From IMG/VR virus record IMGVR_UViG_3300037840_000311, positions 1 through 56,366 of that record: DNA of 56,366 nucleotides; one strand, 5' to 3'. This DNA comes from a virus. Lineage: Duplodnaviria > Caudoviricetes. The translations under genes and the position numbers were made by a program. The notes below the pieces were generated by a model. That model saw nothing but the letters and a program-made list of their open reading frames with translations. It did not search any database and was not told where the DNA came from. Positions 21,022 to 53,889 of this stretch are shown one piece after another; within the stretch, counting starts at the first letter, position 1, and each line of letters starts with the position of its first letter.

Positions 21022-21696
21022 GTGCGAACAATTGTGAACCTCAGAGCCTACCACCCGGAGCTTGGAGAGCAGGTCTACGGCGTCCATTTGCTGTCAGACG
21101 ACCCGGATACCCAGGTAGCGCAGACCATCCACCGCATGGCTCAGAACGTCCGGGAGGACGCGAAGTCAGCTCCTATCCTTAATGAAGCGGCGGCGATTCA
21201 AGCTTTAGGCTCAGGGGATCCGGTCTCCGATACCTTCTGGCACGTCAAGAATCGGGTAGGCTTCCGGCAGGATGAGCAATTGGCGGCTCCGGTTCTGCCA
21301 TTGCTTCAGCAATACGATCCTGGCGCGAGCGTGGTTGAAGTCCTTGTACGGCCGCGGGACCTGGCGCAGATGCCGAACCCGATGGAAGACTGCGACGGTT
21401 TTGCATCCTACATGCCGGCATTGCTTCGAGCTCAGGGCGTGAAGTGCAACTTCGTCACGGTCGCGGCCGATGGGCGGGATACGTCGCGATTCTCCCACGT
21501 GTACGCAGCTTGCTATCCGAATGGGCAGCGAGTTTCCTTGGATGCTTCGCACGGACCTTACCCGGGATGGGAATGTTTAAGCGCTGGACCTGTCTGGAGA
21601 ATTAAAGAGTGGGATATCGATGCTGTGGACTGGGGTCAGGTTGTTCTGTGGGGACTGTTTTTATTTGCAGCCGGTAAGTTGATGGGGATTTTATGA
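21022..21696 (+). CDS. Transglutaminase-like (Cys-His-Asp) protease, putative maturation protease
   Basis: EDCDG ... FSHVY ... SLDAS; C-terminal TM; first gene of the late region. Confidence 0.8.
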   Translation: MRTIVNLRAYHPELGEQVYGVHLLSDDPDTQVAQTIHRMAQNVREDAKSAPILNEAAAIQALGSGDPVSDTFWHVKNRVGFRQDEQLAAPVLPLLQQYDPGASVVEVLVRPRDLAQMPNPMEDCDGFASYMPALLRAQGVKCNFVTVAADGRDTSRFSHVYAACYPNGQRVSLDASHGPYPGWECLSAGPVWRIKEWDIDAVDWGQVVLWGLFLFAAGKLMGIL

Positions 21697-21896
21697 AGCG
21701 GCTTTTTGGTTGGGCTCTTCTGTGTTGGCGACTCCATGCAAGCTTGCGCGCGGCGAGAATCGCGATCGGTGAGGCGGGGCGTCAACCAATTAGAATCCGG
21801 CCCGCGGTTCGACTTCCCCGGTTTCAGGGCGCCCACATGCCGGAAGCCTTCATTGAACAGGTGAACGGCGGTTTATCCAAAAGGACCCACGCGTGA
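21693..21896 (+). CDS. Linker ORF over a left/right element with ~70-nt filler
   Basis: MKRLFGWAL...VNGGLS; 4-nt overlaps at both ends. Confidence 0.55.
   Translation: MKRLFGWALLCWRLHASLRAARIAIGEAGRQPIRIRPAVRLPRFQGAHMPEAFIEQVNGGLSKRTHA
21703..21882. repeat. Left+right element with short insert
   Basis: TTGGGCTC...GCGCGG and ...CAGGTGAACGGCGGTTTATCCAAAA. Confidence 0.85.
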
Positions 21897-22249
21897 GAGT
21901 TGATACCCCATTCCCGGATCGTCCACTCATGCCACCCTTAACCGGAGGAATGGGAGACTTCACACTCTCCAACGGTCAAGCGTGCGATCCAGGGCTCATG
22001 GGGCCAGTGCTCTGCCAGGATACCACGGTGAGAATCATCAACGCGATCGCGGCTGGTACAGCAACGGCGGCGCAGATCGCGGCCGGCAACAGTCTGGGAG
22101 TATCCAGCGCGAATTGTCCACTGGGCACGATCTACAATCCCGCAACACTGAGTTGTCAGCCAGGCGTTACAGCGACGGCTTCTGCAAACAGCGGAATGAT
22201 TCTCCTGTTGATAGCCGGGGCGGTTGTGTACTTCATGATGAGGCGATGA
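21893..22249 (+). CDS. Tail-anchored putative virion membrane protein
   Basis: TGGMGD motif; C-terminal TM then MMRR. Confidence 0.75.
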   Translation: MRVDTPFPDRPLMPPLTGGMGDFTLSNGQACDPGLMGPVLCQDTTVRIINAIAAGTATAAQIAAGNSLGVSSANCPLGTIYNPATLSCQPGVTATASANSGMILLLIAGAVVYFMMRR

Positions 22250-22252
22250 ACG

Positions 22253-22582
22253 ATGGCGAAGTCATGGGACGGTTGGACGCTACGGGCACGGGTTAGAGGA
22301 ATGAGATCAGCACGAGAAACAGCAGGGCGGCATCGCTCATATGGCGATGCGGTGCGGATCACGAAAATGAGTGGCGATTGGTATGGGGTTTATTCCAAAA
22401 CCACTAAGCGATCAAAGCCATATGGTCCGCCGGGATCGAATCCTCGGAAGCGGAAGCGGCACGCGAAACACCGGAAGAATCCTCGGCAACTTCTATTTCG
22501 CACGGCCAAAGCAGCTCGGGCCTACGCAAAGGCTCACGGCGCTAAGAAGTTCTCGGTTCGAAAGTTGAAAAGGGGCAAATGA
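22253..22582 (+). CDS. Basic Asn-Pro-punctuated putative core protein
   Basis: NPRQLLFRTAKAARAYAKAHGAKKFSVRK; paralogous to 40084..40371. Confidence 0.75.
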   Translation: MAKSWDGWTLRARVRGMRSARETAGRHRSYGDAVRITKMSGDWYGVYSKTTKRSKPYGPPGSNPRKRKRHAKHRKNPRQLLFRTAKAARAYAKAHGAKKFSVRKLKRGK

Positions 22583-23286
22583 CTCCAGCGCAACATAGAG
22601 CGGGTGAAGCCTTCATGCACCGGGGATACTTCGGCATGCAAGGGCTCGGCATCACGTCCCAGCAGATTACCTCGACCGTGGGCGGCTCGCTGATGGCTTC
22701 GGCTGGCGTCGTGGCGCTGATACCAGGCGGCCAACTTCCCGCGGCGATCATCGCGGCAGTGGGAGCGCTTACCAATCTGATCGGCGGATTGTTTAAACCG
22801 GACATTACCAAGATCCAGGCGTCCCAGATCGTAGACCAGATCGAAGCGCAGACGTTGAAACCCATGCGCGTTAGTTGGCAGGCGTTGCCGGCGAATCAGA
22901 AAACCGTGAGCATGCAAGCTCACTACTTGAACGTGTTCGATCAGGCATGGTCCGCGGTCATGCAAGGTTGCTCGAATCCGGCGCTCGGCAGCGCAGGGCA
23001 GAATTGCATCGGTGATCGGCAGCGAGGGGCTTGTCACTACACCCAGACGGGGCAGACTCCGGGAGCTCCACCGAACTGTGGGAACTGGTTCGTTTGGTAT
23101 CGGGACCCGATAGCGAATGACCCGAACGTGATTCCCGATCCTGTAGCGGGAGTTTCAACGGCTCCGGGCTCGGTGACGGGCGCGATCGATTCCACGGTAT
23201 CAAGCGTGTCGCAAGCGCTCGGCGGTATCTCTCCGCTGTGGATTGGTCTCGGGATTATCGTAGCGGCCTTCATGGTGAGCGACTGA
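22579..23286 (+). CDS. Putative virion membrane protein
   Basis: MQGLG motif; N- and C-terminal hydrophobic segments. Confidence 0.8.
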   Translation: MTPAQHRAGEAFMHRGYFGMQGLGITSQQITSTVGGSLMASAGVVALIPGGQLPAAIIAAVGALTNLIGGLFKPDITKIQASQIVDQIEAQTLKPMRVSWQALPANQKTVSMQAHYLNVFDQAWSAVMQGCSNPALGSAGQNCIGDRQRGACHYTQTGQTPGAPPNCGNWFVWYRDPIANDPNVIPDPVAGVSTAPGSVTGAIDSTVSSVSQALGGISPLWIGLGIIVAAFMVSD

Positions 23287-24239
23287 TGGAATTGAACCTC
23301 AGACCTCCGGTATACCGATTCCATCCGTTGATGAGACCGCGGCGCGGTTTCGCCGGCATGGGCGCCGATCCGGGCGTCAATGCAACTACGATCTGGACAC
23401 CTTCAGGAGGATGGACGGGCGGCGGTGGAGCGGCGGTGTATCAGGCTCCCAGCGTTCCTCCGCTGCCGGCGTGTACGCAGGATACCCAACCAGGCGGCGC
23501 GGCATTTTCCCAAGCGTGCATCGATGCGTTGCAAAAACGGCAACAGGGGATTTTTCAAGCGAACAACAATGCGAATTTCCAGGTGGACTATACCAACTGC
23601 GTCAACCAAGGCCTCGACCCTTCGGTATGCGCCTCGCGAACCTACGGCCTGACTCCCGCAGGTGGGTACACGTCGGATGCTGGCGCAGGACCGGCCGGGT
23701 CGCAACTGATCCTTGACGCCAACGGTAATCCAGTACCTCCAGCGGGATCGAATCCACCGGCTCCGCATCCTCCAACTCCGGGGAGTGGAACCGTTCTCGC
23801 GTTCACAAACCTGACCTCTGGCGACAATACGAATTTCAAAGTAGGCGACCGCTGGCAAATCAAAATCACCGGCGCGGCGCCGAATGCTCCGGTTACGGTT
23901 TCCGGGGGTATGGCTGGCGGAAATACGTTTGCAAGCCAAGGGATGACTAATCAGGGAACGACCGATTCAGCGGGCAACTTCACGATGAACGGTCAGATGA
24001 CCCAAGGGCAGATCGGGAGTTGGTCGGAGTCCTGGAGCGTGGCGGGGGCTCCTATCGCGTCTTTCACGTTCAACGTTTCGGCGGGATCAACGGGCGGCGG
24101 TCAGTCCACACAGACCTCAACCTCTACAAGCGTCTTCGGCACGCTGCCCGGAGGTTCTGTTTTGATCGGCGGGACGAGCGTTCCTTGGCTTGCGATTGGG
24201 GCTGGTGTGGTGGTTTTGTTTTTGATGATGAGGCGATAA
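23286..24239 (+). CDS. Tail-anchored putative virion protein with an Ig-like beta region
   Basis: FAGMG motif; C-terminal TM then MMRR. Confidence 0.8.
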   Translation: MELNLRPPVYRFHPLMRPRRGFAGMGADPGVNATTIWTPSGGWTGGGGAAVYQAPSVPPLPACTQDTQPGGAAFSQACIDALQKRQQGIFQANNNANFQVDYTNCVNQGLDPSVCASRTYGLTPAGGYTSDAGAGPAGSQLILDANGNPVPPAGSNPPAPHPPTPGSGTVLAFTNLTSGDNTNFKVGDRWQIKITGAAPNAPVTVSGGMAGGNTFASQGMTNQGTTDSAGNFTMNGQMTQGQIGSWSESWSVAGAPIASFTFNVSAGSTGGGQSTQTSTSTSVFGTLPGGSVLIGGTSVPWLAIGAGVVVLFLMMRR

Positions 24240-24637
24240 TGAAAGGCTTATTGTTTGGGCTGATCTGTCGGCGTCTGGTCCGTGCTTGCCAGGGCGCGGC
24301 GATGTTTTATGCGGTCTGTGTGTGTTGCACATTCTCCCAAGGGGCATTTTGTTCCAGGGCATCCGCAACGGTGGCAGCCGTCGAAACGAAACCCTGCCAC
24401 GTTTGGACACGTGCGAGGGCAGGGAGTCCCGCCGTAAATTCCCATGACGTGGCAAACGCAATCGCACAAGCCGGACCGACTAGCGGGAGTCGCAAACAAT
24501 TCGCCGATAAAATCGAGCAGTCCCATCGAAACGCGCTTTGTTTGGGTCGTGGCCGTCCTTACCATACCCCCAGCCCTGACGTAAGTCCCTTTACCGCTGG
24601 TTTGGCCGCGACCGAATCAGCTTGGAGTTTAGCATGA
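24239..24637 (+). CDS. Linker ORF over a left site and antisense cargo
   Basis: TAATG start overlap; ATGA stop overlap. Confidence 0.5.
   Translation: MKGLLFGLICRRLVRACQGAAMFYAVCVCCTFSQGAFCSRASATVAAVETKPCHVWTRARAGSPAVNSHDVANAIAQAGPTSGSRKQFADKIEQSHRNALCLGRGRPYHTPSPDVSPFTAGLAATESAWSLA
24248..24526 (-). CDS. Antisense cargo, Cys-rich protein
   Basis: Many Cys; ends through the left site (DQPKQ*). Confidence 0.6.
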   Translation of the reverse strand: MGLLDFIGELFATPASRSGLCDCVCHVMGIYGGTPCPRTCPNVAGFRFDGCHRCGCPGTKCPLGECATHTDRIKHRRALASTDQTPTDQPKQ

Positions 24638-24819
24638 ATTTCACAGGCTTAGGCAGTTGTCCAACAGGTCAGACCGATTCGAATGGCGTTTGCATCGCTG
24701 GTAATGTTCCGCCTTGGCCCGTTTTGTGCTTTTCAAATCCTTCAGCCGTTGGCGGGTTTAACTGCGGCTTGCTCTATCTCGGGATTGCCGTGGTTTTGTT
24801 TTTGATGATGAGGAAGTGA
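24634..24819 (+). CDS. Small tail-anchored protein
   Basis: FTGLG motif; TM then MMRK. Confidence 0.7.
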   Translation: MNFTGLGSCPTGQTDSNGVCIAGNVPPWPVLCFSNPSAVGGFNCGLLYLGIAVVLFLMMRK

Positions 24820-24989
24820 ACTTGTGGGAATTGCGCGTTTGCGATGTCTGTTTGTTGCTCGATCAGGATTCGACTCCGAAGCCTTGTCTATTTTGCCCAA
24901 GTTGTCAGGCGTGGATTTGTCAGCAGGATCAGGGAGACATGGTGAGACGAGCAAAAGCAATGTTCAAGCGACAGTGGGGTACGGAATGA
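24816..24989 (+). CDS. Small zinc-finger-like protein
   Basis: CDVC...CLFCPSCQAWIC; coupled at both ends. Confidence 0.6.
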   Translation: MNLWELRVCDVCLLLDQDSTPKPCLFCPSCQAWICQQDQGDMVRRAKAMFKRQWGTE

Positions 24990-25363
24990 AACGCTTATTG
25001 TTTGGGCTCGACAGCGGGCGCAGGCTTGGTGCTTGCGGGCGCGCGGTGAAGGACCACTTCGAGGTTCCCGTATGCATCCGCGAAAAACCCGCTGAGCGTT
25101 TCCTGGCCTTCCTCCGGGAAACAATCTCTCAGGCATTGAGCGTTGAAAAAATAACTCTCCAGAATATCCACGTCGAGAGGCTTGCCTTCGATGGCTCTGG
25201 ATATGATTTGGTGGGCCCGGCTCAGAAGATCAAGGGCTTCTTCGAGTGCATGGACCGCTTTATCAGGCTCAATCGTCATACATCCTCCGCGCGCTCACAA
25301 GCCATCATAGCCCAACTGGTGAACGGCGGTTTACCCCAAGAAACGAAAAGGAGCTTCGCATGA
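24986..25363 (+). CDS. Linker ORF over a loaded element
   Basis: MKRLLFGL...VNGGLP; ATGA overlaps at both ends. Confidence 0.5.
   Translation: MKRLLFGLDSGRRLGACGRAVKDHFEVPVCIREKPAERFLAFLRETISQALSVEKITLQNIHVERLAFDGSGYDLVGPAQKIKGFFECMDRFIRLNRHTSSARSQAIIAQLVNGGLPQETKRSFA
24995..25279 (-). CDS. Antisense cargo, helical protein
   Basis: GGAGG RBS on minus strand; ends through the left site (VEPKQ*). Confidence 0.7.
   Translation of the reverse strand: MTIEPDKAVHALEEALDLLSRAHQIISRAIEGKPLDVDILESYFFNAQCLRDCFPEEGQETLSGFFADAYGNLEVVLHRAPASTKPAPAVEPKQ
24998..25340. mobile_element. Loaded element with one antisense gene
   Basis: Canonical left (24998-25048) and right (25285-25340) half-sites. Confidence 0.8.
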
Positions 25364-26052
25364 GCCTAGGAGTCGTACGTTACTGCACACCGGAAGGCGG
25401 TTCAGGTTTCATTCCGAACTCGTCGCTTCCTTGGCTCTCGTCCTTTAACATTACTCAACAGGCTCCGGTTTACGATCAGTATCCAGGATGGCTGAGGGAT
25501 GCTCTTCCGGGAAGCTACACCAACTACTCGCGCTTCGGACCTCCCTACTCGATGGATGGGGGAGTGCTTCCGCCTTACTACGTTGATGAAACCGGGCAAC
25601 CCGTCCCAGTTCCGACGAGCTGCGGGATGGGCGCGGTCGATCCGGGACAATTTGAAGCGCAGTACGGCCATCCGGAACCGGACGCATCGACCTGCGTACA
25701 AATCCAGTGCGGGGCGATTTCCCAAACCCAAGCCGGGATGCAACTGATTGTCGATTGCGCCAACGCCGGGTACTCCGGGGTCCGTTCGTGTTTCGATCCG
25801 GCATGCTCTCCCTGGAGGTCTCGAATCCCAGGATGTTCGTTAGCGCCCAACGCTCCGTCGCCCGTGCTCTTGCGTTCCGATGTTGTGGCGCCCATGCCGT
25901 CGATTACCACCACAGCGCGAGGCGGGTGTCAGCAGCAATCGCGGCCGGCGTGTCCTTCGCCTCTGGCTAGTTGGCTTCAATCGAATCCGCTGCTTGCTTT
26001 GGGATTAGCGATTGCAGCCGGGGCCATTTTATTTGGAGGTGGCAAGAAGTGA
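25360..26052 (+). CDS. Cys-rich tail-anchored putative virion protein
   Basis: SCGMG motif; C-terminal TM then GGKK. Confidence 0.8.
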   Translation: MSLGVVRYCTPEGGSGFIPNSSLPWLSSFNITQQAPVYDQYPGWLRDALPGSYTNYSRFGPPYSMDGGVLPPYYVDETGQPVPVPTSCGMGAVDPGQFEAQYGHPEPDASTCVQIQCGAISQTQAGMQLIVDCANAGYSGVRSCFDPACSPWRSRIPGCSLAPNAPSPVLLRSDVVAPMPSITTTARGGCQQQSRPACPSPLASWLQSNPLLALGLAIAAGAILFGGGKK

Positions 26053-26774
26053 ACTCCAAAGACCTCATCAAATACGGACTGCTCGCGTTGGGAGCGTACC
26101 TGATTTGGAAGTACGTTCAAGATCACGGCGGCATTTCGGGATTATTCGGAACCACCGCGGCAGCGGGAACTACTGGTTTGAATGCAAACGGTACAGCCGT
26201 GCTGAATCAGGTTCTTGGGCAACTCCATATCAGTCCATCCGTAGCCGCCTCGCTGAACCTGACATCAAGCCAGATCGCCTTATTAAATTCAACGACCATA
26301 CCTACAGGGCAAGTTCCGGGTCCTGGGTTTCTTTCAGAGTTGGCATTCACGCCAGCACAAATGTCGATACTCAGCGGCGCTCCCTATATTGGGCCTGTCG
26401 GCGGAACGCTACCCGTGGGCAGCACGATTCCTTCAACGCCAGTGTCCACGCCGCCTCCGTTCACCACTCCGACTCCCGCGCCAATCGTACAGCCAGTTAC
26501 GCTTGCCCCCACCGTCTCCCAAAAGATGCTCGCAGCGGCAGGAACAAACAGCCTGAACATGGATCAATGGTGCTTCTATTACTCGGCGGCCACGGGGAAC
26601 GGTTGCCCGGTCGATCCGGGCTCGATCGATCCGAGCGTTTACGCCGGCGCGGGAATCGTGGACCGTACCACACCGACCGATGTCGGAACATGGATCGCAA
26701 TCATGCAAAACCAAGCGCCTCAGTTGGGCTTGATGGGACTTGGGGCGCGTTTCACTCCGGCTTGGCTCATGTGA
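26049..26774 (+). CDS. N-terminally anchored putative virion protein
   Basis: N-terminal TM; LMGLG near the C-terminus. Confidence 0.8.
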   Translation: MNSKDLIKYGLLALGAYLIWKYVQDHGGISGLFGTTAAAGTTGLNANGTAVLNQVLGQLHISPSVAASLNLTSSQIALLNSTTIPTGQVPGPGFLSELAFTPAQMSILSGAPYIGPVGGTLPVGSTIPSTPVSTPPPFTTPTPAPIVQPVTLAPTVSQKMLAAAGTNSLNMDQWCFYYSAATGNGCPVDPGSIDPSVYAGAGIVDRTTPTDVGTWIAIMQNQAPQLGLMGLGARFTPAWLM

Positions 26775-26781
26775 GGATGCG

Positions 26782-27396
26782 ATGGAACTAGCTCTCAGAC
26801 GCGCTTACGGATACGCTTTCGGATCTCCGCTACTTCATTCCCACTACGGAATGCGAGGATTGGGAGATACTGTCAGCGATCTGATAGCCGCTGGCGTGAA
26901 CCCCATTGACGCGCAAGCCTACGCGCCTCAGATCAACATGGACCCGTCACCAATTGGAACCACGCTGGCCCCACCGGAGTTAAGCCTTTATGCGCAATTG
27001 GTCCAGCAGGGAGTGAATCCGATTGACGCGCAGGTATACGACCCGACAGGAGCGGCTGCGGCGGGCTACATTCCAGGATCGGCAACCTCGCCGTCAACCT
27101 CGACCAGCACTGCGGGAGCGATTACGGCGGCGTCACAAATCGCGGCGGCACTGAGTCGCGCGCTGGCGCCTACTCCTGGAATCTTCGGAGGAACGCCAAC
27201 CAGTTGCCCAGCGGGGTACGTTTACGGAGCTCCGGGGGCTTCAGTCGCCATCGCGCCTGGTGTAGCGACCGTGGGCACGGGGAAATGCTTACCGAGCACG
27301 GTACCAGCGGGGATCATTCCGGGAGTCTCGAATACGACTCTTGGCATTGCGGTGTTTGCCGTGATTGTTCTGATGATGATGGGGAAAAAGCGGTGA
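26782..27396 (+). CDS. Tail-anchored putative virion protein
   Basis: MRGLG motif; GVNPIDAQ twice; TM then MMMGKKR. Confidence 0.8.
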   Translation: MELALRRAYGYAFGSPLLHSHYGMRGLGDTVSDLIAAGVNPIDAQAYAPQINMDPSPIGTTLAPPELSLYAQLVQQGVNPIDAQVYDPTGAAAAGYIPGSATSPSTSTSTAGAITAASQIAAALSRALAPTPGIFGGTPTSCPAGYVYGAPGASVAIAPGVATVGTGKCLPSTVPAGIIPGVSNTTLGIAVFAVIVLMMMGKKR

Positions 27397-27400
27397 AGGG

Positions 27401-27510
27401 TTTTGGGCTCGACAATTCGGAGCGGGTTCGGAATGCTCAGGGCGCGGCGGCTGTCTCCGCGCTTCCACGGGCTGAAAACCTTCGACCAATGGTGAACGGC
27501 GGTTTATCCC
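27401..27510. repeat. Empty element (left + CGGCTGTCT + right)
   Basis: ~110-bp imperfect palindrome covered by linker ORF 27393..27515. Confidence 0.92.
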
Positions 27511-27511
27511 T

Positions 27512-27730
27512 ATGAGCAAAACCGTACAAAAACAAGGCCGTCTCGATCATCTCGCCAAAGGAGTGCTTAACAAGTTGCTCAAGGAAATAGGCAACCCGGA
27601 AATGCGGTTCACGTGCAAACTTCTGGAGGAAGAAATAGACGAGACCCTGGAAGAGAATTTAGGACCGGGTACCCAAGTTCACAAAGTAGGGCAGAGAATT
27701 CTCCGGGCGATCAATAGGGGAGACCGCTGA
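27512..27730 (+). CDS. Small hypothetical protein
   Basis: Coupled at both ends. Confidence 0.6.
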   Translation: MSKTVQKQGRLDHLAKGVLNKLLKEIGNPEMRFTCKLLEEEIDETLEENLGPGTQVHKVGQRILRAINRGDR

Positions 27731-27738
27731 TGGTTTCT

Positions 27739-27933
27739 TTATTGTTTGGGCTCATCTGTCGGTTGCGAGTCCGTGCTTGCCATTGCGCGGCGGCTGAGTT
27801 CTTCGCCGATCAGTTCTCTCAGGCGTCGTCCTCCATCCTGTTTTGCAAAGTGAATGAGAATAGTTGCCTGATCGCGGCTAAAACCCTGACTCATAAGTTC
27901 ACGCACTTCAGGGCTAAGCCGCTCTTCTTCCAT
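27739..27933 (-). CDS. Antisense cargo protein under linker ORF 27730..27966
   Basis: Ends through left site 27742-27794 (DEPKQ*). Confidence 0.6.
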   Translation of the reverse strand: MEEERLSPEVRELMSQGFSRDQATILIHFAKQDGGRRLRELIGEELSRRAMASTDSQPTDEPKQ

Positions 27934-27965
27934 GAATTCAGTCTAACTCACCGGGGGATTGCCTG

Positions 27966-28514
27966 ATGCAACTGGCGCTGCGAGGGATGGGCGCGATAAG
28001 CGCGAACGGAATACCGTACAACGATACGGGAGATGGAATCTCGCTTGACAACTTCCAGTCCGGATGCTGTCCGTGGGAAATCACAACGCCCTCGTGTTCC
28101 GCATTTATTCAAGCAAATCAATCCCGGTTCGCCGGATACTCGCCTTGTTCATCGGCAGCCCAAGAAGCGCTGACGTTTCCAAATCTGCCAGGGCCAACCG
28201 GCGCAGCGGTTACGCCTCCGGTTTTGAATCCGGCTCTGTTGAACTCGCAAGATCCTAACACTACGATCAATCAGATTCTTGTAGCAAGCGCGGCAGCGGA
28301 TACGGCGCAGAATCGAGCGGCGGCAGCGGGCATTCTCGCCAACCTCTGCGCGACTCAGGCGGCAACCTGCCAATCCAGTTTCTTCAGCGCATTCGTTTCG
28401 CCAAGTCCCGATTGCACCGGGTGTGTGTTCGACTTCAGTAAGACCGCTTCAATGTTCTTGGTTGCCGGAATCGTTCTGCTCGGCCTTGCGCTGACAAAGG
28501 GGATTGTCCGATGA
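27966..28514 (+). CDS. Cys-rich tail-anchored putative virion protein
   Basis: LRGMG motif; C-terminal TM. Confidence 0.8.
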   Translation: MQLALRGMGAISANGIPYNDTGDGISLDNFQSGCCPWEITTPSCSAFIQANQSRFAGYSPCSSAAQEALTFPNLPGPTGAAVTPPVLNPALLNSQDPNTTINQILVASAAADTAQNRAAAAGILANLCATQAATCQSSFFSAFVSPSPDCTGCVFDFSKTASMFLVAGIVLLGLALTKGIVR

Positions 28515-28677: not shown

Positions 28678-28683
28678 ATTTTC

Positions 28684-47014: not shown

Positions 47015-47016
47015 CC

Positions 47017-47075
47017 GCCACCGCGCGCCCGCAAGCTGAACGCCTTCGAGCACTGGCGAACGGAGGTTTATCCCA
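47017..47075 (+). repeat. Solo right half-site covered by 22-aa linker ORF 47011..47079
   Basis: CCACCGCGCGCCCGCAAG...CTGGCGAACGGAGGTTTATCCC; ATGA overlaps at both ends. Confidence 0.92.
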
Positions 47076-49094
47076 ATGAATCCGTTTCTCGCTTGCCTCA
47101 TAGCTCTCTGGCACTCGCTCTGGTTCTCGCCTCAGTTGTATCCGTTTCCTGGGAATCCACCAGTTGGTTCGGCACCAATTACTCTCGACGCCTCTTGCAC
47201 TGGAATAGGCAGTGCTTTCACCACCCCATGTTCATCACCAATGACCGTGACTGCTGGCGACACAATAACCTGCGAAGGTGTTATCTCTGCTTTCTCCGGA
47301 GAGTTTGGCTGGTTCAATGATGCTACCAACAATGCAATTTACGATACCGTCTACGGAGGACTTAATGGGACCAGCACGAATAACTGGGTAATCAGCGCCG
47401 TATATCCCAATTCAGCGGGTGGCTCTATAACCCCACAGATAAACGGATGGCCTTCCGGAGCTACTTCGTTTTTACTTTTGGCCTGTCAGGCGTGGAAAGG
47501 GACTCGCAGCACTTTTGTAGTAGATCCAACTCCGATCTTATTTAATGCCGCAAACGCATCGAATCCTACGGCAGGAACGGCGGTGACTCCTACAAACATC
47601 AATGAATTGATTGTTTGTCAGCTATCGCGTGCATCGGCGGCCACCACTTCTGCCGGATCGGGATTCAGCCCTGCCGGGACACTGACAGCCGTTACAGAAA
47701 ATTTGAGCCAATACTTTCAGTATCAGATTCAGACTGCCGCGACCGCCGTGAATTGCCCCTACACGTCCGCTTCGGCACAGTATACCGATACTCAGTTCGC
47801 ACTTCTGAATGCCGTCAATCCGGCGGGATATAGACCGCTCGGTGGAATGTACGGCTTCCCTGCATCGGCTCAGACCAATGGTGCGACCGCCACGCTAGCA
47901 ATTCTGAATACATCCAACTCAGGCTCCATTTGGGCCACGCACGGAAATCCTACTAACGCACCGTGGACCCAGTATTCCGGCGCTACAGTAACTTTCGATA
48001 CCTCGGTGAACCCCACAGGCACCGGAAAGATCATGGTCAACGGAAAGACCCATACATTCGGCGATGCGGGCGGCAGTGTGGCATTTCCCAACGGCAATGC
48101 AAGTAAAAACGCCTATCTGTTCACAGATTTGTCAGCTAATCAAGGCACTCCGATGTGGCTGTCTTATTTCTTTCGGGCCGCATCTGCTGGAGCAACTGCA
48201 TCGACGGGCTGCGATACGGTAGATTTATCGGGGGGAATCGTGGAGGGGGGCGTGGATGTTCAAGCACAATACACCACCGGCGGAACTCCTTTAGGATTTT
48301 TCATTGAACCCGCTGAAGGCGGTCATTCACCGGCCATAAGCGGGTTCAGCGCAGACACAGACTACTGGATACAGATTCACTCGGCGGGGGTAAATGAGCG
48401 ATACCACCAGGTGCTTGTGTCCAGCAAATCCGGTGGGGTATGGTCGTTATCAAGTACATTGAATTTCGACGCGCTGTGTGCAGCCCAAGGCGGCACTAAC
48501 TGCACGACGCCAGCTACGGTTGCCACGGGTTCAGGAACAGTGTCTTCAGGATCGAACTCTCTGGTACTCACGGGAGTAACCGGGACGGTATCGGTCGGCA
48601 ACGTCGTACTTGCCGCGTCGGGGAGCGCCATTCCCTATATCACGACAGTAGCGGCCTCGACGGTTTCGGCGGGTTCGGGAACGGTCACACTCTCTCAAAA
48701 CGCCGCCTCTCCCTTAAGCGCGGCGACCGTCAATTTCATAGCCAAGCCTGCCAATTTAATCGCAGCGACAACCGGGACAGTTTCAGCCGGTTCCACCGCA
48801 ATGACCATAGTAGTGCCGGGATCTGGGACCGTCGCTGTCGGGCAAGCGATCGGGAGCACAGATGGCAACATTCAGATGGGCACTGTAGTCGCCGCCGTAT
48901 CGGGCACCTCTGTCACACTTAACCAGGCTCCGGCCATCGCCGAATCTAGTGGCGTGTCATTTTGGAGAACATCACCAGGCTTGCCTAACTTTCCAATTGG
49001 AACATGGTCGTCTTGTGCGTTTACGAACACGCTTTGGTATAGCGGGGTAGTGTGGGACCCGTTAGGAACTTGGGGCCAGTTTGAGCCGAACTAA
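47076..49094 (+). CDS. Large beta-rich putative receptor-binding protein
   Basis: Hydrophobic N-terminus; Ser/Thr/Gly-rich; duplicated C-terminal module (GTVS.GS...V.VG...VTL.Q). Confidence 0.8.
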   Translation: MNPFLACLIALWHSLWFSPQLYPFPGNPPVGSAPITLDASCTGIGSAFTTPCSSPMTVTAGDTITCEGVISAFSGEFGWFNDATNNAIYDTVYGGLNGTSTNNWVISAVYPNSAGGSITPQINGWPSGATSFLLLACQAWKGTRSTFVVDPTPILFNAANASNPTAGTAVTPTNINELIVCQLSRASAATTSAGSGFSPAGTLTAVTENLSQYFQYQIQTAATAVNCPYTSASAQYTDTQFALLNAVNPAGYRPLGGMYGFPASAQTNGATATLAILNTSNSGSIWATHGNPTNAPWTQYSGATVTFDTSVNPTGTGKIMVNGKTHTFGDAGGSVAFPNGNASKNAYLFTDLSANQGTPMWLSYFFRAASAGATASTGCDTVDLSGGIVEGGVDVQAQYTTGGTPLGFFIEPAEGGHSPAISGFSADTDYWIQIHSAGVNERYHQVLVSSKSGGVWSLSSTLNFDALCAAQGGTNCTTPATVATGSGTVSSGSNSLVLTGVTGTVSVGNVVLAASGSAIPYITTVAASTVSAGSGTVTLSQNAASPLSAATVNFIAKPANLIAATTGTVSAGSTAMTIVVPGSGTVAVGQAIGSTDGNIQMGTVVAAVSGTSVTLNQAPAIAESSGVSFWRTSPGLPNFPIGTWSSCAFTNTLWYSGVVWDPLGTWGQFEPN

Positions 49095-49106
49095 GCGAGG
49101 CTGTTT

Positions 49107-49574
49107 ATGATTCTCCTCACCTTCGAAGACATCCAACCCGCGAACCCAAAACCACCCTCCAACTGGCCCTACCTGATAGCCGTGATCCTCATGGCTGCTT
49201 TCGGCGTGATCGCCGTATTGATCTTGACCAAGCTGCGCCCGACTCAGGACAACAGCATGCTGATTACAACGGTGATCGGGTTCTTGTCAACAACAACAGG
49301 CGTGATCCTGACCTTCATGAAAGCGGCCGATACCCACGATGCAGTGAACGGGCAACTCAGACGATTCCTGGATACAGCAAGGCAGGTATCGCACTACGAA
49401 GGCCAGGCACAAGGAAGGATCGAGGGAATCGCTGAAGGGGAATTGAGACACCCGATGCAAGCCGTCATCCCGGTTGTGCTTCAGCCAGCGCCGCCGATTC
49501 TACCCACCGCCCCCGCGCTTTCACCCGTACAACCCGCGCCCACTGATGCGGCCAACAAAAAGGAGTCCTCATGA
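49107..49574 (+). CDS. Two-TM holin-like protein
   Basis: Two TM segments directly upstream of the lysozyme-like gene. Confidence 0.6.
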   Translation: MILLTFEDIQPANPKPPSNWPYLIAVILMAAFGVIAVLILTKLRPTQDNSMLITTVIGFLSTTTGVILTFMKAADTHDAVNGQLRRFLDTARQVSHYEGQAQGRIEGIAEGELRHPMQAVIPVVLQPAPPILPTAPALSPVQPAPTDAANKKESS

Positions 49575-49978
49575 GCCTAACAGATCAAATCGCCAAATCC
49601 ATCGCCAATGTCGAATCGGGCGGCAACCCCAACGCCTTATCGTATCGAAACAACAATCCGGGAAACCTCCGCTCCTGGGGATCGAACCCGATCGTCAACG
49701 GCTACGCCAAATTTCCCACGATGCAAGACGGATGGAACGCTCTCTATTCCCAGATCAACACAAACATCGGCCGCGGCCTCACATTGAATCAGTTTTTTGC
49801 CGGCCAGCGAGATGCTAACGGCAACGTCATCCCAGGCGGATACCCCGGCTACGCTCCAAGTGGAGACAGCAACACGCCATCGGCTTACGCGGCTCGTGTG
49901 GCGTCAGACGTAGGCATTGACCCGAACACCCCGCTGAACGCCTTGGGAAGCCCGCCAAACCCTCACAAGCCCTCCTGA
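49571..49978 (+). CDS. Lysozyme-like muralytic protein
   Basis: IANVESGG, RNNNPGNLR, YAKFPT...G, YAP..D.N...YA..V. Confidence 0.8.
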   Translation: MSLTDQIAKSIANVESGGNPNALSYRNNNPGNLRSWGSNPIVNGYAKFPTMQDGWNALYSQINTNIGRGLTLNQFFAGQRDANGNVIPGGYPGYAPSGDSNTPSAYAARVASDVGIDPNTPLNALGSPPNPHKPS

Positions 49979-50165
49979 ACGCACAAACAGGCGGGCCAGA
50001 CACCAGCGCAATCGATCCGGTAACCGGCCTGCCAATCGATTACACGAATTCAATCACGTCCGATCCTTCGCAGTCAGGAGTAGTGGATTACACAGGTTTA
50101 GTTCTGTTGGGATTAGGATTGTTGGCAGCCTGGTACTTTTTCACGGATTGAAGCCTTTTTTTAGG

Positions 50166-50194
50166 TTGACCGCCTCTCGTTCTAAGCGTAGAAT
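50166..50194 (+). promoter_or_regulatory. Sigma70-like promoter
   Basis: TTGACC-17-TAGAAT a few nt before GTG 50201 (possibly leaderless). Confidence 0.65.
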
Positions 50195-50200
50195 ACTTTC

Positions 50201-50485
50201 GTGCCCGCTCCAAACTATCTAGTGTGCGCTCCTGCCGATGGGCCACTTTGCGTTGCGGGAACCGTCTTCAAGCATTTTTGCTCCGTTTGTCACCAACGCG
50301 TCATGCTCTCACCTTCCGGCCAGGAGCGTTTGAAATCTCTCGCGGATGTGAAAATTATCTGCTTGGACTGTTTTACTGAGCACCCACCAGAGGACGCCAA
50401 TTATCAGCATTCAGCAGGATCGGCAGAAAACGCCAGCCGCGAACTTTCGACGGCTGTACCGAATTCTTGGAAAAGCCGGAACTGA
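50201..50485 (+). CDS. Zinc-finger-like hypothetical protein
   Basis: CSVC...CLDC. Confidence 0.65.
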   Translation: MPAPNYLVCAPADGPLCVAGTVFKHFCSVCHQRVMLSPSGQERLKSLADVKIICLDCFTEHPPEDANYQHSAGSAENASRELSTAVPNSWKSRN

Positions 50486-50489
50486 ACTA

Positions 50490-50550
50490 GCCACCGCGCG
50501 CCCACATTTCCAACCCTGCCCCGGCTGGCGCACGGCGGTTTTCCCAAAAA
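50490..50550 (+). repeat. Right half-site
   Basis: CCACCGCGCGCCC...CTGGCGCACGGCGGTTTTCCCAAAAA. Confidence 0.85.
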
Positions 50551-50559
50551 CATCGTAAA

Positions 50560-50847
50560 ATGGAATCCATGCCAAAACCAACAGATGAAGTATCCGTACC
50601 CTTCCCCATGAAGCAGTCAGCTCTTGACAAATTGATAGCCTGGGGGAAAACCCAAGGGCTCACCGAACCAACGGCGATCCTCGAAGCCTTCATGCTCAAA
50701 GTGGGTTCAGTCGCGGCGCAGCATCCCGACAAGCACGCCAAATTCGGCGACTCCCCATTCTTCCCGCCCGATCCGACAGCGCCCGATCCGTGCGACGGCT
50801 GCCGAGGATGGGATTGTGTGATTTGCACGTTCACCGGGTCGTACTGA
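50560..50847 (+). CDS. Hypothetical protein with Cys-rich C-terminus
   Basis: CDGC...CVIC. Confidence 0.65.
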   Translation: MESMPKPTDEVSVPFPMKQSALDKLIAWGKTQGLTEPTAILEAFMLKVGSVAAQHPDKHAKFGDSPFFPPDPTAPDPCDGCRGWDCVICTFTGSY

Positions 50848-50881
50848 TATACTGGACTTGCGTTTGCATTGTCAGCCTCTT

Positions 50882-50920
50882 GGCCCGTTTCCACACGAAC
50901 TGGAGCGGGCCGTTTTTTTG
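50882..50920 (+). terminator. Intrinsic terminator
   Basis: GGCCCGTTTCCA / TGGAGCGGGCC stem followed by a T7 run. Confidence 0.75.
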
Positions 50921-50949
50921 TTTGACCGCCTCTCATTCCCAAGCTCCCC

Positions 50950-50978
50950 TTGACAACGAATGCTTCATGGAGCATACT
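50950..50978 (+). promoter_or_regulatory. Sigma70-like promoter
   Basis: TTGACA-17-CATACT. Confidence 0.6.
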
Positions 50979-51005
50979 GACCACTTGAACCGGCAAGAGC
51001 AATTC

Positions 51006-51155
51006 ATGCGCGAGCTTCAAGCCCTCGTCAATAAATATTTCGTCCCGACGATGAACGAGCTCCGATCCGAAAAGCTCACACCAAAGAAGCGTAAGGAAAT
51101 AGCCCAAAAAGCGGCAAGGGCCAGATGGGGGAAGAAACCAGATGTCAATCCATGA
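51006..51155 (+). CDS. Small basic protein (LTPKKRKEIAQKAARARW motif; start uncertain)
   Basis: Motif related to 1772..1981. Confidence 0.6.
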   Translation: MRELQALVNKYFVPTMNELRSEKLTPKKRKEIAQKAARARWGKKPDVNP

Positions 51156-51462
51156 TGGAATACGCCTGATAGCGATTACGTGCCCGCGTATTTATTGCGA
51201 TGTCTGCCAGAGGACTTTCCCGCGCGGACTTGAACCGATCATGACGATTCGGCTGGCAACGGAAAAGCCCAGCGCATACCGTTGGGACAACAGCGAAGCG
51301 ACGTATACAGCCGATGGAATTCCAACGACTGTAGATGCCTACCTCGCCGACGCAATTGCTGCCGGATGGAAACAGGTGGACTTTTTCGGGAAACCGCAGA
51401 TAGTCTGCACAAATTGCGCCACCGCGCCCCCGCGACCGCCGAAAACCCCGTGGAACCGTTGA
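51142..51462 (+). CDS. Zinc-finger-like protein ending in a right half-site
   Basis: CDVC...GW...CTNC. Confidence 0.65.
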   Translation: MSIHDGIRLIAITCPRIYCDVCQRTFPRGLEPIMTIRLATEKPSAYRWDNSEATYTADGIPTTVDAYLADAIAAGWKQVDFFGKPQIVCTNCATAPPRPPKTPWNR

Positions 51463-51472
51463 GCCCAAAAAC
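51419..51472 (+). repeat. Right half-site, GAGCCCAAA type
   Basis: CCACCGCGCCC...GTTGAGCCCAAAAA. Confidence 0.85.
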
Positions 51473-51483
51473 AGAATGAGCCC

Positions 51484-52647
51484 ATGCCCGACAATTTCAA
51501 ATTCCTACCAGATCATTCGACCAACCCTGATCATTCTCCTCTCAGGAGACACACCCCCACTCCCCACCCCGACAGTTTCATCGACGACTACTCCCACGCC
51601 AGACCGGGCATCTGGCCCCTGCCCGACAAGTTGCACGTGATGACGGTTCTGAGCAACCCCCCGCGGTTTCGATCCAGGTACAACCTCTACCGCGAGTACT
51701 CGAAACGTGTGCTCGACTCCTCGGCCATCCTTCACACCTGTGAAATCGCTTTTGGTCAGCGGCATTTTGAAATCACGGACCCCAATAACCCCCATCACCT
51801 TCAACTTCGCACTAGCCATGAACTTTGGCACAAAGAGAACGGCCTGAATCTGCTGATCGCCAACGCGCGGCGGCTCTACCCGGAAATGCGGTACGTTGCA
51901 TGGATCGACGCGGATATTCAATTCGCCCGGCCAGATTTCGCGCAAGAAACCCTCCATCAACTGCAGCATTTCGACTTCGTGCAGATGTTTTCTCACGCTC
52001 AGAATCTTGGACCGGAAGGCCAGCCGATCGATGAGAAAACCACGCCAGGTTTCATGTGGAGCTACGCCAATGATCGGCCGAACCCTCACGACGCCCCGGA
52101 CGGTTGGGACTGGGCAACCCAATTTCAAACCTCATCGGCCGATGGCGTAAGCCCTATGTGCTACTACTCCATGCTGCCGGAGCAAGCCGGCCCGATTTCG
52201 TGGAAATTCACGCACCCCGGTTTTTGTTGGGCAGCCCGCGTCGACGCCCTCGACAAAGTAGGCGGTTTGATCGATTTCGGCATCCTGGGATCCGGCGATT
52301 ATCACATGGCTTGTGCCCTGGTAGGCCACGTCGAATACAGCCTCGCTAGAGAAATGCCGGAGCGGTACAAGTACCTCTGCTACCAGTGGCAAGAGCGGGC
52401 GGAAAAGCACATTCGCCGAAACGTGGGATACGTGCCCGGTTTGGTCAATCACGGATGGCACGGCAGACGCGCAGCCAGGCTCTATGACAAGCGCTGGAAG
52501 TTCCTGAAGGTCTCAGGCTTCGATCCAGATCTAGACCTCAAGAAAGACTCGCAAGGTCTCTGGCAGTTGACGGACAGAAGCTATCAACTGAGAGACGGGC
52601 TCAGGGATTACGCCCGATTGAGAAACGAAGATTCCATTGACCTATGA
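51484..52647 (+). CDS. Putative GT-A-fold glycosyltransferase-like protein
   Basis: LWHKEN.LN, VAWIDADI (DxD), HPGFCWA, LGSGD, HGWHG. Confidence 0.7.
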   Translation: MPDNFKFLPDHSTNPDHSPLRRHTPTPHPDSFIDDYSHARPGIWPLPDKLHVMTVLSNPPRFRSRYNLYREYSKRVLDSSAILHTCEIAFGQRHFEITDPNNPHHLQLRTSHELWHKENGLNLLIANARRLYPEMRYVAWIDADIQFARPDFAQETLHQLQHFDFVQMFSHAQNLGPEGQPIDEKTTPGFMWSYANDRPNPHDAPDGWDWATQFQTSSADGVSPMCYYSMLPEQAGPISWKFTHPGFCWAARVDALDKVGGLIDFGILGSGDYHMACALVGHVEYSLAREMPERYKYLCYQWQERAEKHIRRNVGYVPGLVNHGWHGRRAARLYDKRWKFLKVSGFDPDLDLKKDSQGLWQLTDRSYQLRDGLRDYARLRNEDSIDL

Positions 52648-52792
52648 ACCTCCCCACTAATCAAGCCGAGATGATCGAATTCCGCAAGCGATTGATTGAC
52701 GCACGGCGCCGCAACCCAGAAGCACTCCAGACTTTCGCGGATGAAGTGATCGCAGCGGCTGACAAACTTATCGCAGAATACCAGGAGAACGA

Positions 52793-53539
52793 ATGAGAAC
52801 CACCAAACGCATGGGATGGATACCGGACCTCCCCGACCAGAGAGACCACAAGTATGGCCGTGCTCTGTTGGCGAAACTCCCCTTCGCCGTCTCACTCCGC
52901 GCCAACGCCGGGCCGATCTACGATCAAGGAAACATCGGCTCATGCACCGCGCAAGCCATCGCCGCGGCCATCGTGTACGAAGAGAAGAAACAGAGCCTAC
53001 CCGAAATCTTCCCCTCGCGCTTGTTCATCTACTACAACGAGCGGGTGATCGAGAATTCCGTATCGAGCGACTCCGGCGCCCAGATCCGGGACGGCATCAA
53101 GAGCGTAGTGAACCAGGGAGTTTGCAACGAAAGATCCTGGGGATACGAACACGCTTTTGACGATGTACCGTGGTCGAAGTGCTACACCGAGGCCAAGCGC
53201 GATCTCGTCAAGCAGTATCTGAGCTTGGACCCCGACTTGAACCAGATGCAAACCTGTCTCGCGGCAGGCTTCCCTTTTATCGTGGGATTCACGGTGTACG
53301 ACTCGTTCCAATCGGACGCGGTAGCTAACTCTGGACATGTGCCGATGCCGGGACCCTCTGAGCAGGTGATCGGCGGGCATGCGGTTTTGTGTTTGGGGTA
53401 CGATAACGCGAGTCAAACATTCCTTTGTCAGAACTCGTGGGGAAAAGACTGGGGAATGCAAGGGTTTTTCACAATGCCCTATGCGTATTTAACGGATTCA
53501 AATTTAGCTGGAGACTTTTGGTCTATCAGGATGGTGTGA
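52793..53539 (+). CDS. Papain-like C1 family cysteine peptidase
   Basis: DQGNIGSCTA, SRLFIYY, GGHAV, NSWGKDWG. Confidence 0.95.
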   Translation: MRTTKRMGWIPDLPDQRDHKYGRALLAKLPFAVSLRANAGPIYDQGNIGSCTAQAIAAAIVYEEKKQSLPEIFPSRLFIYYNERVIENSVSSDSGAQIRDGIKSVVNQGVCNERSWGYEHAFDDVPWSKCYTEAKRDLVKQYLSLDPDLNQMQTCLAAGFPFIVGFTVYDSFQSDAVANSGHVPMPGPSEQVIGGHAVLCLGYDNASQTFLCQNSWGKDWGMQGFFTMPYAYLTDSNLAGDFWSIRMV

Positions 53540-53889
53540 GTTTGGCTTCACCAGACGAACGCAAGAGCGAGACAGAACGGCAGCGCGGCGGCGATTTGTA
53601 TAGCGTTGTTCTTGACAGGGCAACCGAGAACTACGAGCAGGCTTTCGCGTGGAACAAGCCGGAAAATGGATCTGGTTATCATGCCATCAGCCTAAACAGG
53701 CTCATCCATGCAGAAGCTCAGATTGAAGTGTTGGAAATCTTCAATTGCGGCCAAGTTGGGGGTTATGATCGCGGACAGGAAGCGGCAGGCCGCCGATCAC
53801 TGAAAGATCGGCTCGCTTGGCTCAAATCTCATCGCCCCAGCGCCCCAACAAGCCCGGACCCGAGACCAACAGGTGAACCCAAACCATGA
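53536..53889 (+). CDS. Sense cargo ORF spanning a left/right pair
   Basis: Left TTTGGCTTCACCAG...GCGCGG 53541-53592; right ...CAGGTGAACCCAAA about 53835-53883; coupled at both ends. Confidence 0.6.
   Translation: MSLASPDERKSETERQRGGDLYSVVLDRATENYEQAFAWNKPENGSGYHAISLNRLIHAEAQIEVLEIFNCGQVGGYDRGQEAAGRRSLKDRLAWLKSHRPSAPTSPDPRPTGEPKP

Follow-up and report, generated by a model that had tools for sequence, protein, structure and literature searches.

The DNA studied here is the IMG/VR record IMGVR_UViG_3300037840_000311 (Duplodnaviria; Caudoviricetes), a complete virus record of 56,366 nucleotides (nt) with a terminal repeat of 127 nt, the whole of which we call the window. Its source is an uncultured soil or groundwater phage with a complete genome of 56 kb. 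Nearly all boundaries between its plus-strand genes are ATGA, GTGA or TGATG overlaps, and a simple chain walk follows coupled plus-strand open reading frames (ORFs) without a break through 21022-33155 and 34996-49978, and again from 50560 to the end of the window. The first two of these stretches include a set of ORFs, here termed bridges, that run across repeated elements built of two conserved arms (L and R) and, where the elements carry minus-strand genes (cargo genes), antisense through these genes (Table 1). The long operon ends at the stop at 49978, with a T-rich end. Shortly after it lies a near-consensus sigma-70 promoter (TTGACC-17-TAGAAT, 50166-50194), which heads a second plus chain that wraps across the terminal repeat.

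Table 1. Bridges, cargo genes and related features of the window (aa, amino acids; positions are those of the window).
Position	Strand	Feature	Junctions and remarks
21693-21896	+	Bridge, 67 aa, L..R element, no recognisable cargo	ATGA on upstream stop, GTGA on downstream start
24239-24637	+	Bridge, 132 aa, over cargo 24248-24565	TAATG left, ATGA right
24248-24565	-	Cargo, 105 aa, Cys-rich, L-arm tail ..RRALASTDQTPTDQPKQ before the stop	No TTA, CTA or TCA
24986-25363	+	Bridge, 125 aa, over cargo 24995-25279	ATGA at both ends
24995-25279	-	Cargo, 94 aa	On its own strand, reverse complement of R2, then GCGCGGAGG (Shine-Dalgarno), then ATG
27393-27515	+	Bridge, 40 aa, over empty L.R unit	GTGA left, ATGA right
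27730-27966	+	Bridge, 78 aa, over cargo 27739-27933	Homologous junction of L014 has a 98-aa bridge
27739-27933	-	Cargo, 64 aa, L tail ..RRAMASTDSQPTDEPKQ before the stop	
28511-28687	+	Not a bridge: conserved 58-aa plus-strand gene, L-type tail in sense	41% identical to an L014 ORF at the same chain position
29466-29525	+	Bridge, 19 aa, over solo L arm	
30522-30583	+	R arm in frame inside 713-aa ORF 29885-32026 (..HRAPASRKPSTTGERRST..)	
35677-35760	+	Mini-ORF, 27 aa, ATGA-coupled to bridge 35757-36596	
35757-36596	+	Bridge, 279 aa, over DUF1003 cargo; R arm in minority frame (TGERRFIP)	
36075-36473	-	Cargo, 132 aa, DUF1003 family membrane protein	Pfam PF06210, E 3.4e-24, 85.4 bits against a cutoff of 27.4
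37030-37161	+	Bridge, 43 aa, over empty L.R unit with GC-rich L2/R1 inverted repeat	
37619-38509	+	Bridge, 296 aa, over 141-aa cargo, about 350 nt unassigned and a complete L.R unit	
37625-38050	-	Cargo, 141 aa, beta-rich core and disordered C-terminal tail encoded by the L arm	15 homologues, 46-72% identity
39395-40087	+	Bridge, 230 aa, over two cargo genes	
39464-39679	-	Cargo, 71 aa, ends just before L arm	
39686-40063	-	Cargo, 125 aa, hydrophobic N-terminus	
40368-40565	+	Coupled ORF, 65 aa, solo R arm at C-terminus	N-terminal half resembles L032 3753-3938 by eye
42296-42790	+	Bridge, 164 aa, over 63-aa cargo	
42362-42553	-	Cargo, 63 aa	Homologue under another bridge at a different junction in G002/L032
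47011-47079	+	Bridge, 22 aa, over solo R arm	GGAGG in R2, 9 nt before next ATG
53536-53889	+	117-aa gene, probably ordinary, in the second plus operon (headed by the sigma-70 promoter)	No clear arms, plus-like codon statistics

A sequence-only reading of the window had listed 14 plus-strand ORFs as overlays of such elements, mostly starting on the upstream stop and ending on the downstream start, with a few that abut. All 14 are open and joined to their neighbours as described, and 12 of them overlie L/R elements, but the remaining two (28511-28687 and 53536-53889) look like ordinary genes. An overlap is present at 13 of the 14 left junctions, measured as ORF start minus previous ORF end: 11 have the 4-nt ATGA or GTGA overlap and two the 1-nt TAATG or TGATG overlap (24239, 27730), while 29466 follows a gap of three bases (chain value +4). 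On the right, 12 of 14 junctions overlap, ten by 4 nt, one by 1 nt (27966) and one by 8 nt (38502/38509); the other two abut, directly at 29525/29526 and with two bases between at 42790/42793. The bridges have the hallmark of coupled overlapping cistrons, a stop that overlaps or abuts the next start. Two coupled ORFs were missing from the earlier list: 35677-35760, which starts 24 bases (chain value +25) past the stop of 34996-35652, and 40368-40565.

Shine-Dalgarno matches of at least 4 nt precede 8 of the 14 bridge starts (mean match 3.50), much as in ordinary genes (36/62, mean 3.53), against 668 of 5000 random positions (mean 1.65). Normal sites at bridge starts are what is expected if each site was inherited from the displaced gene. 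Matches of this length also precede 10 of 13 genes that follow bridges, and AAAGGAG at the right end of the element, or GGAGG within R2, stands 6-10 nt ahead of the next start. Bridges read the arms in differing frames, as the earlier reading had pointed out: the L arm appears as ..LFGL.. in four window copies and as ..VWA.. or ..GWA.. in six, the R arm as ..VNGGL.. in eight and as ..GERRF.. in two.

The arms were defined by repeat finding and motif scans. The L arm reads ..TTTGGGCTCRACAG.. then ..CGGGAGCGCGGCGGC, and the R arm GCCACCGCGCGCCCGCAAGCC..GAAACCTT..CTGGTGAACGGCGGTTTATCCC; L2 and R1 are inverted complements and make up a GC-rich inverted repeat. Elements take several forms, from empty L.R units of 123-132 nt (27393-27515, 37030-37161) and solo arms (29466-29525, 47011-47079, 40494-40562) to L..R pairs with 0.2-0.9 kb inside, and in seven window elements there are antisense genes, one or two in each. 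On the minus strand, R2 in reverse complement (a conserved 20-mer) is followed about 38-45 nt on by a Shine-Dalgarno sequence of the GCGCGGAGG type, lying in R1, and an ATG. The same layout precedes an ordinary minus-strand gene, just upstream of which the R arm at 17489-17549, in sense orientation, supplies the R2 reverse complement, about 40 nt, GGAGG and the ATG at 17484. Because of this layout at cargo genes and at 17484, R looks like an expression signal for the gene on its left, and like one that this phage group uses generally on the 5' side of genes. Outside the late operon, R arms occur at 617-690, 7251-7311, 17489-17549 and 50490-50549. A scan of 32000-51600 gave no sigma-70-like site at R or L arms and listed no terminator-like site at L arms, the arm hairpins (L2/R1 included) being without a U tract. 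The possibility that the elements act as structured RNA was dropped, as folds of the empty element on both strands were no stabler than shuffles (z -0.76 to +0.81).

The reverse complement of the L arm encodes the C-terminal residues of many cargo proteins, for instance ..RRALASTDQTPTDQPKQ or, in the 141-aa family, ..RAPASKKR..QPTSESLF; some cargo genes stop just before the L arm instead of reading into it. The same sequence in sense forms the C-terminal tail of ordinary small genes at 956-1129 (-), 28511-28687 (+), 49107-49574 (+) and 14659-14943 (+), with endings such as ..QPAATDAAKQKAS and ..GQLSPKTNEVFS. Such a disordered tail, common to many small proteins that are otherwise unrelated, might serve as a tag for targeting or turnover. 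On its right side the 37619-38509 element contains a complete L.R unit (38404-38495), 84% identical to an empty one (27425-27516), so the 141-aa cassette lies to the left of a whole L.R unit and not between L and R. This layout, with an internal ..MRTLVWA.. L arm within the bridge, recurs in L031 and L032, two 8-kb stretches of related genomes described below.

All eight cargo coding sequences (CDS) are codon-aligned with the overlying bridge, so a stop in the bridge corresponds to TTA, CTA or TCA in the cargo. The eight contain none of these codons (795 codons, among them 68 Leu and 43 Ser) against 17.55 expected (P0 = 5e-9), a zero count that holds partly by construction because cargo ORFs were delimited within frames that had been seen beforehand to be open; what gives the test its force is that all elements found in an operon context carry a bridge. 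In 62 ordinary genes the three codons make up 315 of 13,778 (2.3%). Neither strand (264/11,569 in plus-strand genes, 51/2,209 in minus-strand genes) nor size explains the deficit, since only one of 26 ordinary genes of up to 150 codons has none of them, compared with all eight cargo genes. The deficit is also specific: third-position G+C is 0.623 in cargo and 0.625 in ordinary genes, and other A-ending codons number 149 for 153.7 expected. The aligned antisense frame is fully open in one ordinary gene of 62 (73 codons) and in 8/8 cargo genes.

Synonymous-codon shuffling, which the sequence-only reading had named among its checks, bears this out. With resampling from the phage's own codon usage, the seven cargo-bearing bridges stayed open in 370, 151, 281, 36, 117, 12 and 708 of 2000 trials, which gives a joint probability of openness of about 4e-9. 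Dinucleotide shuffles were open in 2, 0, 5 and 29 of 2000 for 35757, 37619, 39395 and 42296, respectively; short bridges are not significant singly (979/2000 for 27393 and 1545/2000 for 29466). Bridge segments outside the cargo CDS were open in 209, 778, 41, 326, 1098 and 1648 of 3000 shuffles. The openness of the bridges is therefore beyond chance. For cargo of 60-100 aa filtering at insertion is plausible, since 7-35% of random synonymous versions are already open; for the DUF1003 gene (1.8% open) and the two-gene cargo (0.6% open), later synonymous purging is more likely.

The pattern recurs in related phages. A search with the R2 20-mer returned 20 metagenome contigs, 15 of which are phage relatives (L011, L013-L015, L017, L020-L030) with flanking protein identities of 35-85%; L012, L016, L018 and L019 have the 20-mer with no recognisable element context. 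The exact R2 pattern gave no match in viral contigs, where relatives carry a variant R2 and were reached through protein P0002, and two single matches in genome contigs (L009, L010), again without element context. In all 11 contigs with R in a plus-operon context, a frame crosses the element and its stop falls on the next start. TTA, CTA and TCA are absent from eight cargo CDS, located on eight metagenome contigs, against 16.9 expected (772 codons, P0 about 1e-8), and in these CDS the other A-ending codons number 161 for 158.2 expected. More bridges are present in L014, L020 and L027, and orthologues of the 21693-21896 bridge stand at the identical junction in L026 and L027.

R2-like motifs number 12 in G001 (53.7 kb) and 14 in G002 (56.0 kb), both of them complete genomes of relatives. 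Their stretches L031 and L032 hold at least 11 bridge ORFs and six aligned antisense ORFs, in which the three codons are absent against 14.4 expected from own-genome usage (783 codons). A census of both genomes placed all 13 R arms lying on the strand of greater ORF mass under a frame that ends on the next ORF start, and in 10 of the 13 the covering frame also starts on the upstream stop; R arms on the other strand were unbridged in 5/6. The census is heuristic: in the window, its matches at 23428 and 47575 have three mismatches and lie inside large genes, and at 36552 it chose a short frame-a segment over the 279-aa frame-c bridge. Under the G001 and G002 bridges, nine aligned antisense ORFs (55 aa or longer), a set that overlaps the six just mentioned, have none of the three codons against 27.3 expected.

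Elements are present or absent at identical junctions. At 26049 the window is bare (..AAGAAGTGAACTCC..): the upstream gene ends K-K-stop and the next starts V-N-S-K on a shared GTGA. At this junction L013 reads ..AAGAAGTGA, then an insert with a 103-aa antisense gene, then ..GGCGTGAACTCC.., so that the element lies between two copies of GTGA; the old GTG opens the bridge and the new GTGA closes it on the unchanged downstream gene. L021 has a different cargo there and L023 an empty L.R unit, both bridged. The junction at 22579 is a bare ATGA in the window, and in L027 it holds a 180-nt bridge between ATGA and GTGA. Cargo families also occupy differing junctions: the 141-aa gene is at the 37619 junction in the window and L025 and at a 42296-type junction in L030, and the 63-aa gene is at another junction in L032 (flanks compared by eye).

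Three window cargo genes have homologues, namely the DUF1003 gene, the 141-aa family and the 63-aa family. Pfam searches of window minus-strand ORFs matched DUF1003 alone, PHROGs gave no match for ten minus ORFs, and Pfam searches of six cargo ORFs of relatives and four window ORFs gave sub-cutoff Sigma70_r4 and SPOR matches alone. The AlphaFold model of the 141-aa cargo (mean predicted local distance difference test score, pLDDT, 71) has a beta-rich core and a disordered tail, and Foldseek found no match to it in the PDB at E <= 0.001. An exhaustive HMMER search with the 125-aa cargo returned one 117-aa entry, 100% identical, one weak match and nothing else; the identical entry is most likely this ORF with its start placed internally. 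Many cargo genes encode small Cys-rich proteins with paired CxxC, zinc-ribbon-like by eye (L014 1608-1904, L015 7282-7467, L020 4930-5145, L032 1270-1500, a 72-aa ORF of G001 and window 24248-24565). One G001 cargo begins with the twin-arginine-like MDMDRREFF.

Conservation per strand, likewise among the checks named by the sequence-only reading, was compared in one cargo family, the 141-aa family, with four DNA copies (window, L025, L029, L030), and it too favoured that reading. Protein conservation resides in the minus frame, which in all six pairs is more identical (0.40-0.67) than the plus frame (0.32-0.45). At conserved residues, codon identity is 0.53 in this family and 0.51 in seven ordinary gene pairs, which means that protein-level selection on the bridge peptide is not detectable and that the plus frame adds no constraint at synonymous sites; the purifying selection on both translations that marks an antisense overlapping gene pair was not seen in this family of four sequences. 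Neither of the outcomes that the sequence-only reading had named as fatal to it was found: shuffles were not equally open, nor were the linkers conserved where the minus ORFs were not.

We think it probable, from these sequence patterns, that selection keeps cassettes inserted antisense at start-stop overlaps open to translation along the operon strand and that ribosomes cross the insertion. On this reading small accessory cassettes, each with an R arm, one or two cargo genes and an L arm, sit antisense at ATGA, GTGA or TGATG overlaps, and their insertion leaves RTGA at both ends. The former start codon of the downstream gene now opens the bridge, which passes antisense through the cargo codon for codon, crosses a plus-strand Shine-Dalgarno sequence at the right end of the element (AAAGGAG, or GGAGG in R2) and ends where the downstream gene starts. 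TTA, CTA and TCA, the sole codons that give a stop in the aligned bridge, have been purged from the cargo, with the bridge peptide free to vary. In this way ribosomes would stay on the operon mRNA, termination-reinitiation coupling would reach the next gene, and no long untranslated stretch would be exposed to Rho or nucleases. The reason why translation must continue may be coupling, avoidance of Rho or protection from pairing with the cargo mRNA, and the cassettes presumably move between junctions.

Several observations weigh against this reading, in addition to the partly constructed zero count mentioned above. The sequence-only reading had held the bridge peptide to be unimportant, and this stands only in part: the minus frame is the conserved one and the L arm is read in two frames, but ..NLRPLVNGGLS.. 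is the reading of the R arm in 21 of 24 copies and the N-termini of many bridges look like signal peptides, neither of which would be predicted for a peptide-agnostic bridge. The ends of the bridge peptide could conceivably have a role. Codon-table scoring does not give a clean minus strand inside several bridges (35757-36057, for example, is plus-like), and five of the eight window cargo genes, for which no homologue was found, are recognised by the ORF, ATG with Shine-Dalgarno, tail and protein-like sequence. The solo R arms 7251-7311 and 50490-50549, in other plus operons, lie in short stretches to which the chain walk assigns no translated frame, one of 46 nt beyond the stop at 7273 and one of 74 nt beyond that at 50485. 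Finally, four 151-nt contigs of metatranscriptome X3 are identical to 35851-36001, 35973-36123, 36893-37043 and 37048-37198; as their strand is unknown and DNA carry-over is possible, they do not show a transcript. The DNA runs X1 and X2 may represent the samples from which the record came.

Some of these observations would suit bridges that are genuine genes for small exported or membrane peptides, with a signal-like N-terminus from the L arm and ..NLRPLVNGGLS.. from the R arm, so that bridge and cargo form true antisense gene pairs. The predominant R frame is found in six of seven further copies in L031 and L032, the N-termini MKTLLVWAQLFGLFCATGSAAA and MTLKKAFRCWLMLFCAFLACGSAAS are Sec- or lipoprotein-signal-like as judged by eye, and L020 6609-7013, which has an N-terminus of this kind, plausibly encodes a secreted protein. 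Ribosome-binding sites at bridge starts are normal, and 21693-21896 is 52-58% identical to its orthologues, like the flanking genes. We nevertheless consider this explanation unlikely. The two frames of the L arm (four against six window copies) and bridge lengths of 19-296 aa, with unrelated middles set by the underlying cargo, are at odds with a conserved peptide, as are the lower plus-frame identity in 6/6 pairs and the lack of added constraint at cargo synonymous sites. A hydrophobic plus frame is moreover the expected complement of a hydrophilic minus-strand tail, and the identity of empty bridges follows from conservation of the arms at the DNA level.

Translation of the bridges might also have been selected for another end, to block pairing of the operon mRNA with the cargo mRNA and its cleavage by RNase III, or to melt the L2/R1 hairpin. 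The sequence evidence for selected openness serves this explanation equally; the cassettes seem to carry their own minus-strand signals (R2, Shine-Dalgarno, ATG), such that both RNAs could coexist, and L2/R1 is a GC-rich inverted repeat. Yet empty and solo-arm units, with no antisense gene, are bridged too, and the exact stop-on-start at both ends together with the Shine-Dalgarno sequence at the right end points to a hand-over of ribosomes, which makes this explanation rather improbable. Very little speaks for plus ORFs that are ancestral and were overprinted by minus cargo ORFs arising de novo: known relatives are lacking for most cargo ORFs, but DUF1003 is a curated Pfam family and fits an acquired gene better, cargo families occur at differing junctions, some junctions are bare and the minus frame is the more conserved. 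That bridges are chance shadow ORFs due to codon bias in a genome of 56% G+C can practically be dismissed, for even though stops are sparsest, among the non-coding frames, in the codon-aligned antisense one (0.020 per codon) and between a third and three quarters of shuffles leave short bridges open, the aligned antisense frame is open in 1/62 ordinary genes against 8/8 cargo genes (P0 about 5e-9 in the window and 1e-8 in relatives), the deficit is confined to the three stop-complement codons and the junctions match the neighbouring stops and starts.

Recognisable genes of the genome are those for a DnaB-type helicase, a DUF5131 protein and a methylase/SNF2-like protein in the left part, with weak tail and tail-fibre matches in the right. 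Among 50,697 GenBank phages, megablast with 30000-50000 of the window and tblastn with a 580-aa protein and the 141-aa cargo gave no match, and the 298-aa protein 38502-39398, used as a query for related loci in viral contigs, returned none. A search of the window for transfer RNA genes found none. The lone Rfam match is a sub-threshold AdoCbl-II at 19281-19354 (-), with 28.5 bits against a gathering score of 36.5, which lies inside the 580-aa minus-strand ORF and is probably due to chance. Four plus-strand proteins (21893-22249, 23286-24239, 24634-24819, 26782-27396) share a C-terminal hydrophobic anchor (..VVLFLMMRR before the stop), and two members of this family have a 24-nt stretch in common (24210-24233 and 24790-24813, 100% identical). 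A small basic module, ..F(R/K)(T/S)..A..YA(K/R).HG..(F/Y)(S/R)(I/V)(R/Q)K, recurs at 22253-22582, at 40084-40371, in 29885-32026 (about aa 178-215) and in L027 5229-5372. In the window it is free-standing twice and occurs once inside the 713-aa ORF, where an in-frame R arm follows; this suggests that two cistrons and a bridge were fused into one gene.

If cassettes are indeed kept translatable for transiting ribosomes, a compact, ribosome-coupled phage operon can take up accessory genes in the wrong orientation without polar effects, and an ORF would in this natural case be selected for ribosome transit and not for the peptide it encodes. The signature, cassette genes with zero TTA, CTA and TCA that are codon-aligned under a coupled ORF, can be searched for in other viruses. 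It would explain why gene callers annotate either strand, as with the 117-aa identical minus-ORF entry in the protein library under 39395-40087. It also suggests a design rule for antisense payloads in synthetic operons, and the parts played by Rho polarity and coupling in phage late operons become testable by single cargo-synonymous changes.

A search confined to the full text of articles found no description of bridged antisense cassettes. We tentatively propose, with somewhat less assurance than we attach to ribosome transit itself, that they form an undescribed class that targets RTGA overlaps in antisense and is translationally transparent, with ribosome-binding signals on both strands, cargo free of TTA, CTA and TCA, and a peptide-agnostic bridge. 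The Rickettsia palindromic elements (RPEs), treated together with MITEs (miniature transposable elements with inverted repeats), insert in frame into genes and are translated as a passenger peptide (PMC10969869). The elements studied here resemble RPEs, as described there, in being short repeats with a palindromic core (the L2/R1 inverted repeat) and open frames, and one R arm (30522-30583) lies within the 713-aa ORF. RPEs lie inside genes and are geneless, whereas, that R arm excepted, our elements stand between genes at start-stop overlaps, form a separate coupled cistron and often carry antisense genes, the codons of which, unlike anything in that account of RPEs, are constrained to keep the opposite strand open. 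The geneless, non-autonomous character of MITEs is also at odds with the seven window elements that carry genes. No transposase, terminal inverted repeats or typical target-site duplication was established, beyond the RTGA at both ends at two junctions.

In T4-like phages, the composite regulatory motifs called PeSL (promoter-early stem-loop) flank variable genes without known relatives (PMC2839356; PMC4122927). Gene content between those motifs varies among related phages in a way that suggests motif-mediated shuffling, and here, too, conserved motifs flank exchanged variable genes. PeSLs as described in those papers combine sigma-70-like promoters with terminator stem-loops in hyperplastic regions and are co-oriented with the flanked genes, whereas our cassettes are antisense inside a coupled operon, and at the arms the scan of 32000-51600 yielded neither the sigma-70-like early promoter nor the terminator stem-loop. 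We know of no bridge ORF overlying a PeSL.

The morons of lambdoid phages (Juhala, Hendrix and colleagues) are said to be extra genes with a promoter and an intrinsic terminator that interrupt the translation of the operon. Our cassettes resemble them in adding genes, with what look like expression signals of their own, between two neighbours that stand side by side in the late operons of relatives: L013, L021, L023 and L027 have elements at junctions that are bare RTGA in the window. An intrinsic terminator of their own was not found, and at the place of a promoter the R2 20-mer lies 38-45 nt before the cargo ATG, with no sigma-70 consensus at R arms. To our knowledge, neither a stop-free overlay nor a codon purge has been described for morons.

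Termination-reinitiation coupling at ATGA and TGATG overlaps is established (PMC6728339), and identical junction types occur at nearly every boundary of this phage. In the cases described there the overlap joins two real genes, whereas here one partner would be a peptide-agnostic spacer ORF antisense to another gene. Antiparallel ORFs are also known from a study in which real genes have few stops on the strand facing them although the antisense translation is not under purifying selection, and whose authors speculate that translation itself may have a role (bioRxiv 10.1101/724807). The avoidance it reports is a statistical tendency across the genome, with no particular context, whereas ours is total, confined to cassette genes and tied to exact coupling junctions and to insertion polymorphism. 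A last comparison is with inteins, which lie in frame within one protein and are removed by protein splicing. In both cases a selfish insertion would be tolerable since the frame of the host continues; in inteins what continues is one protein, and here it would be ribosome traffic along the operon.

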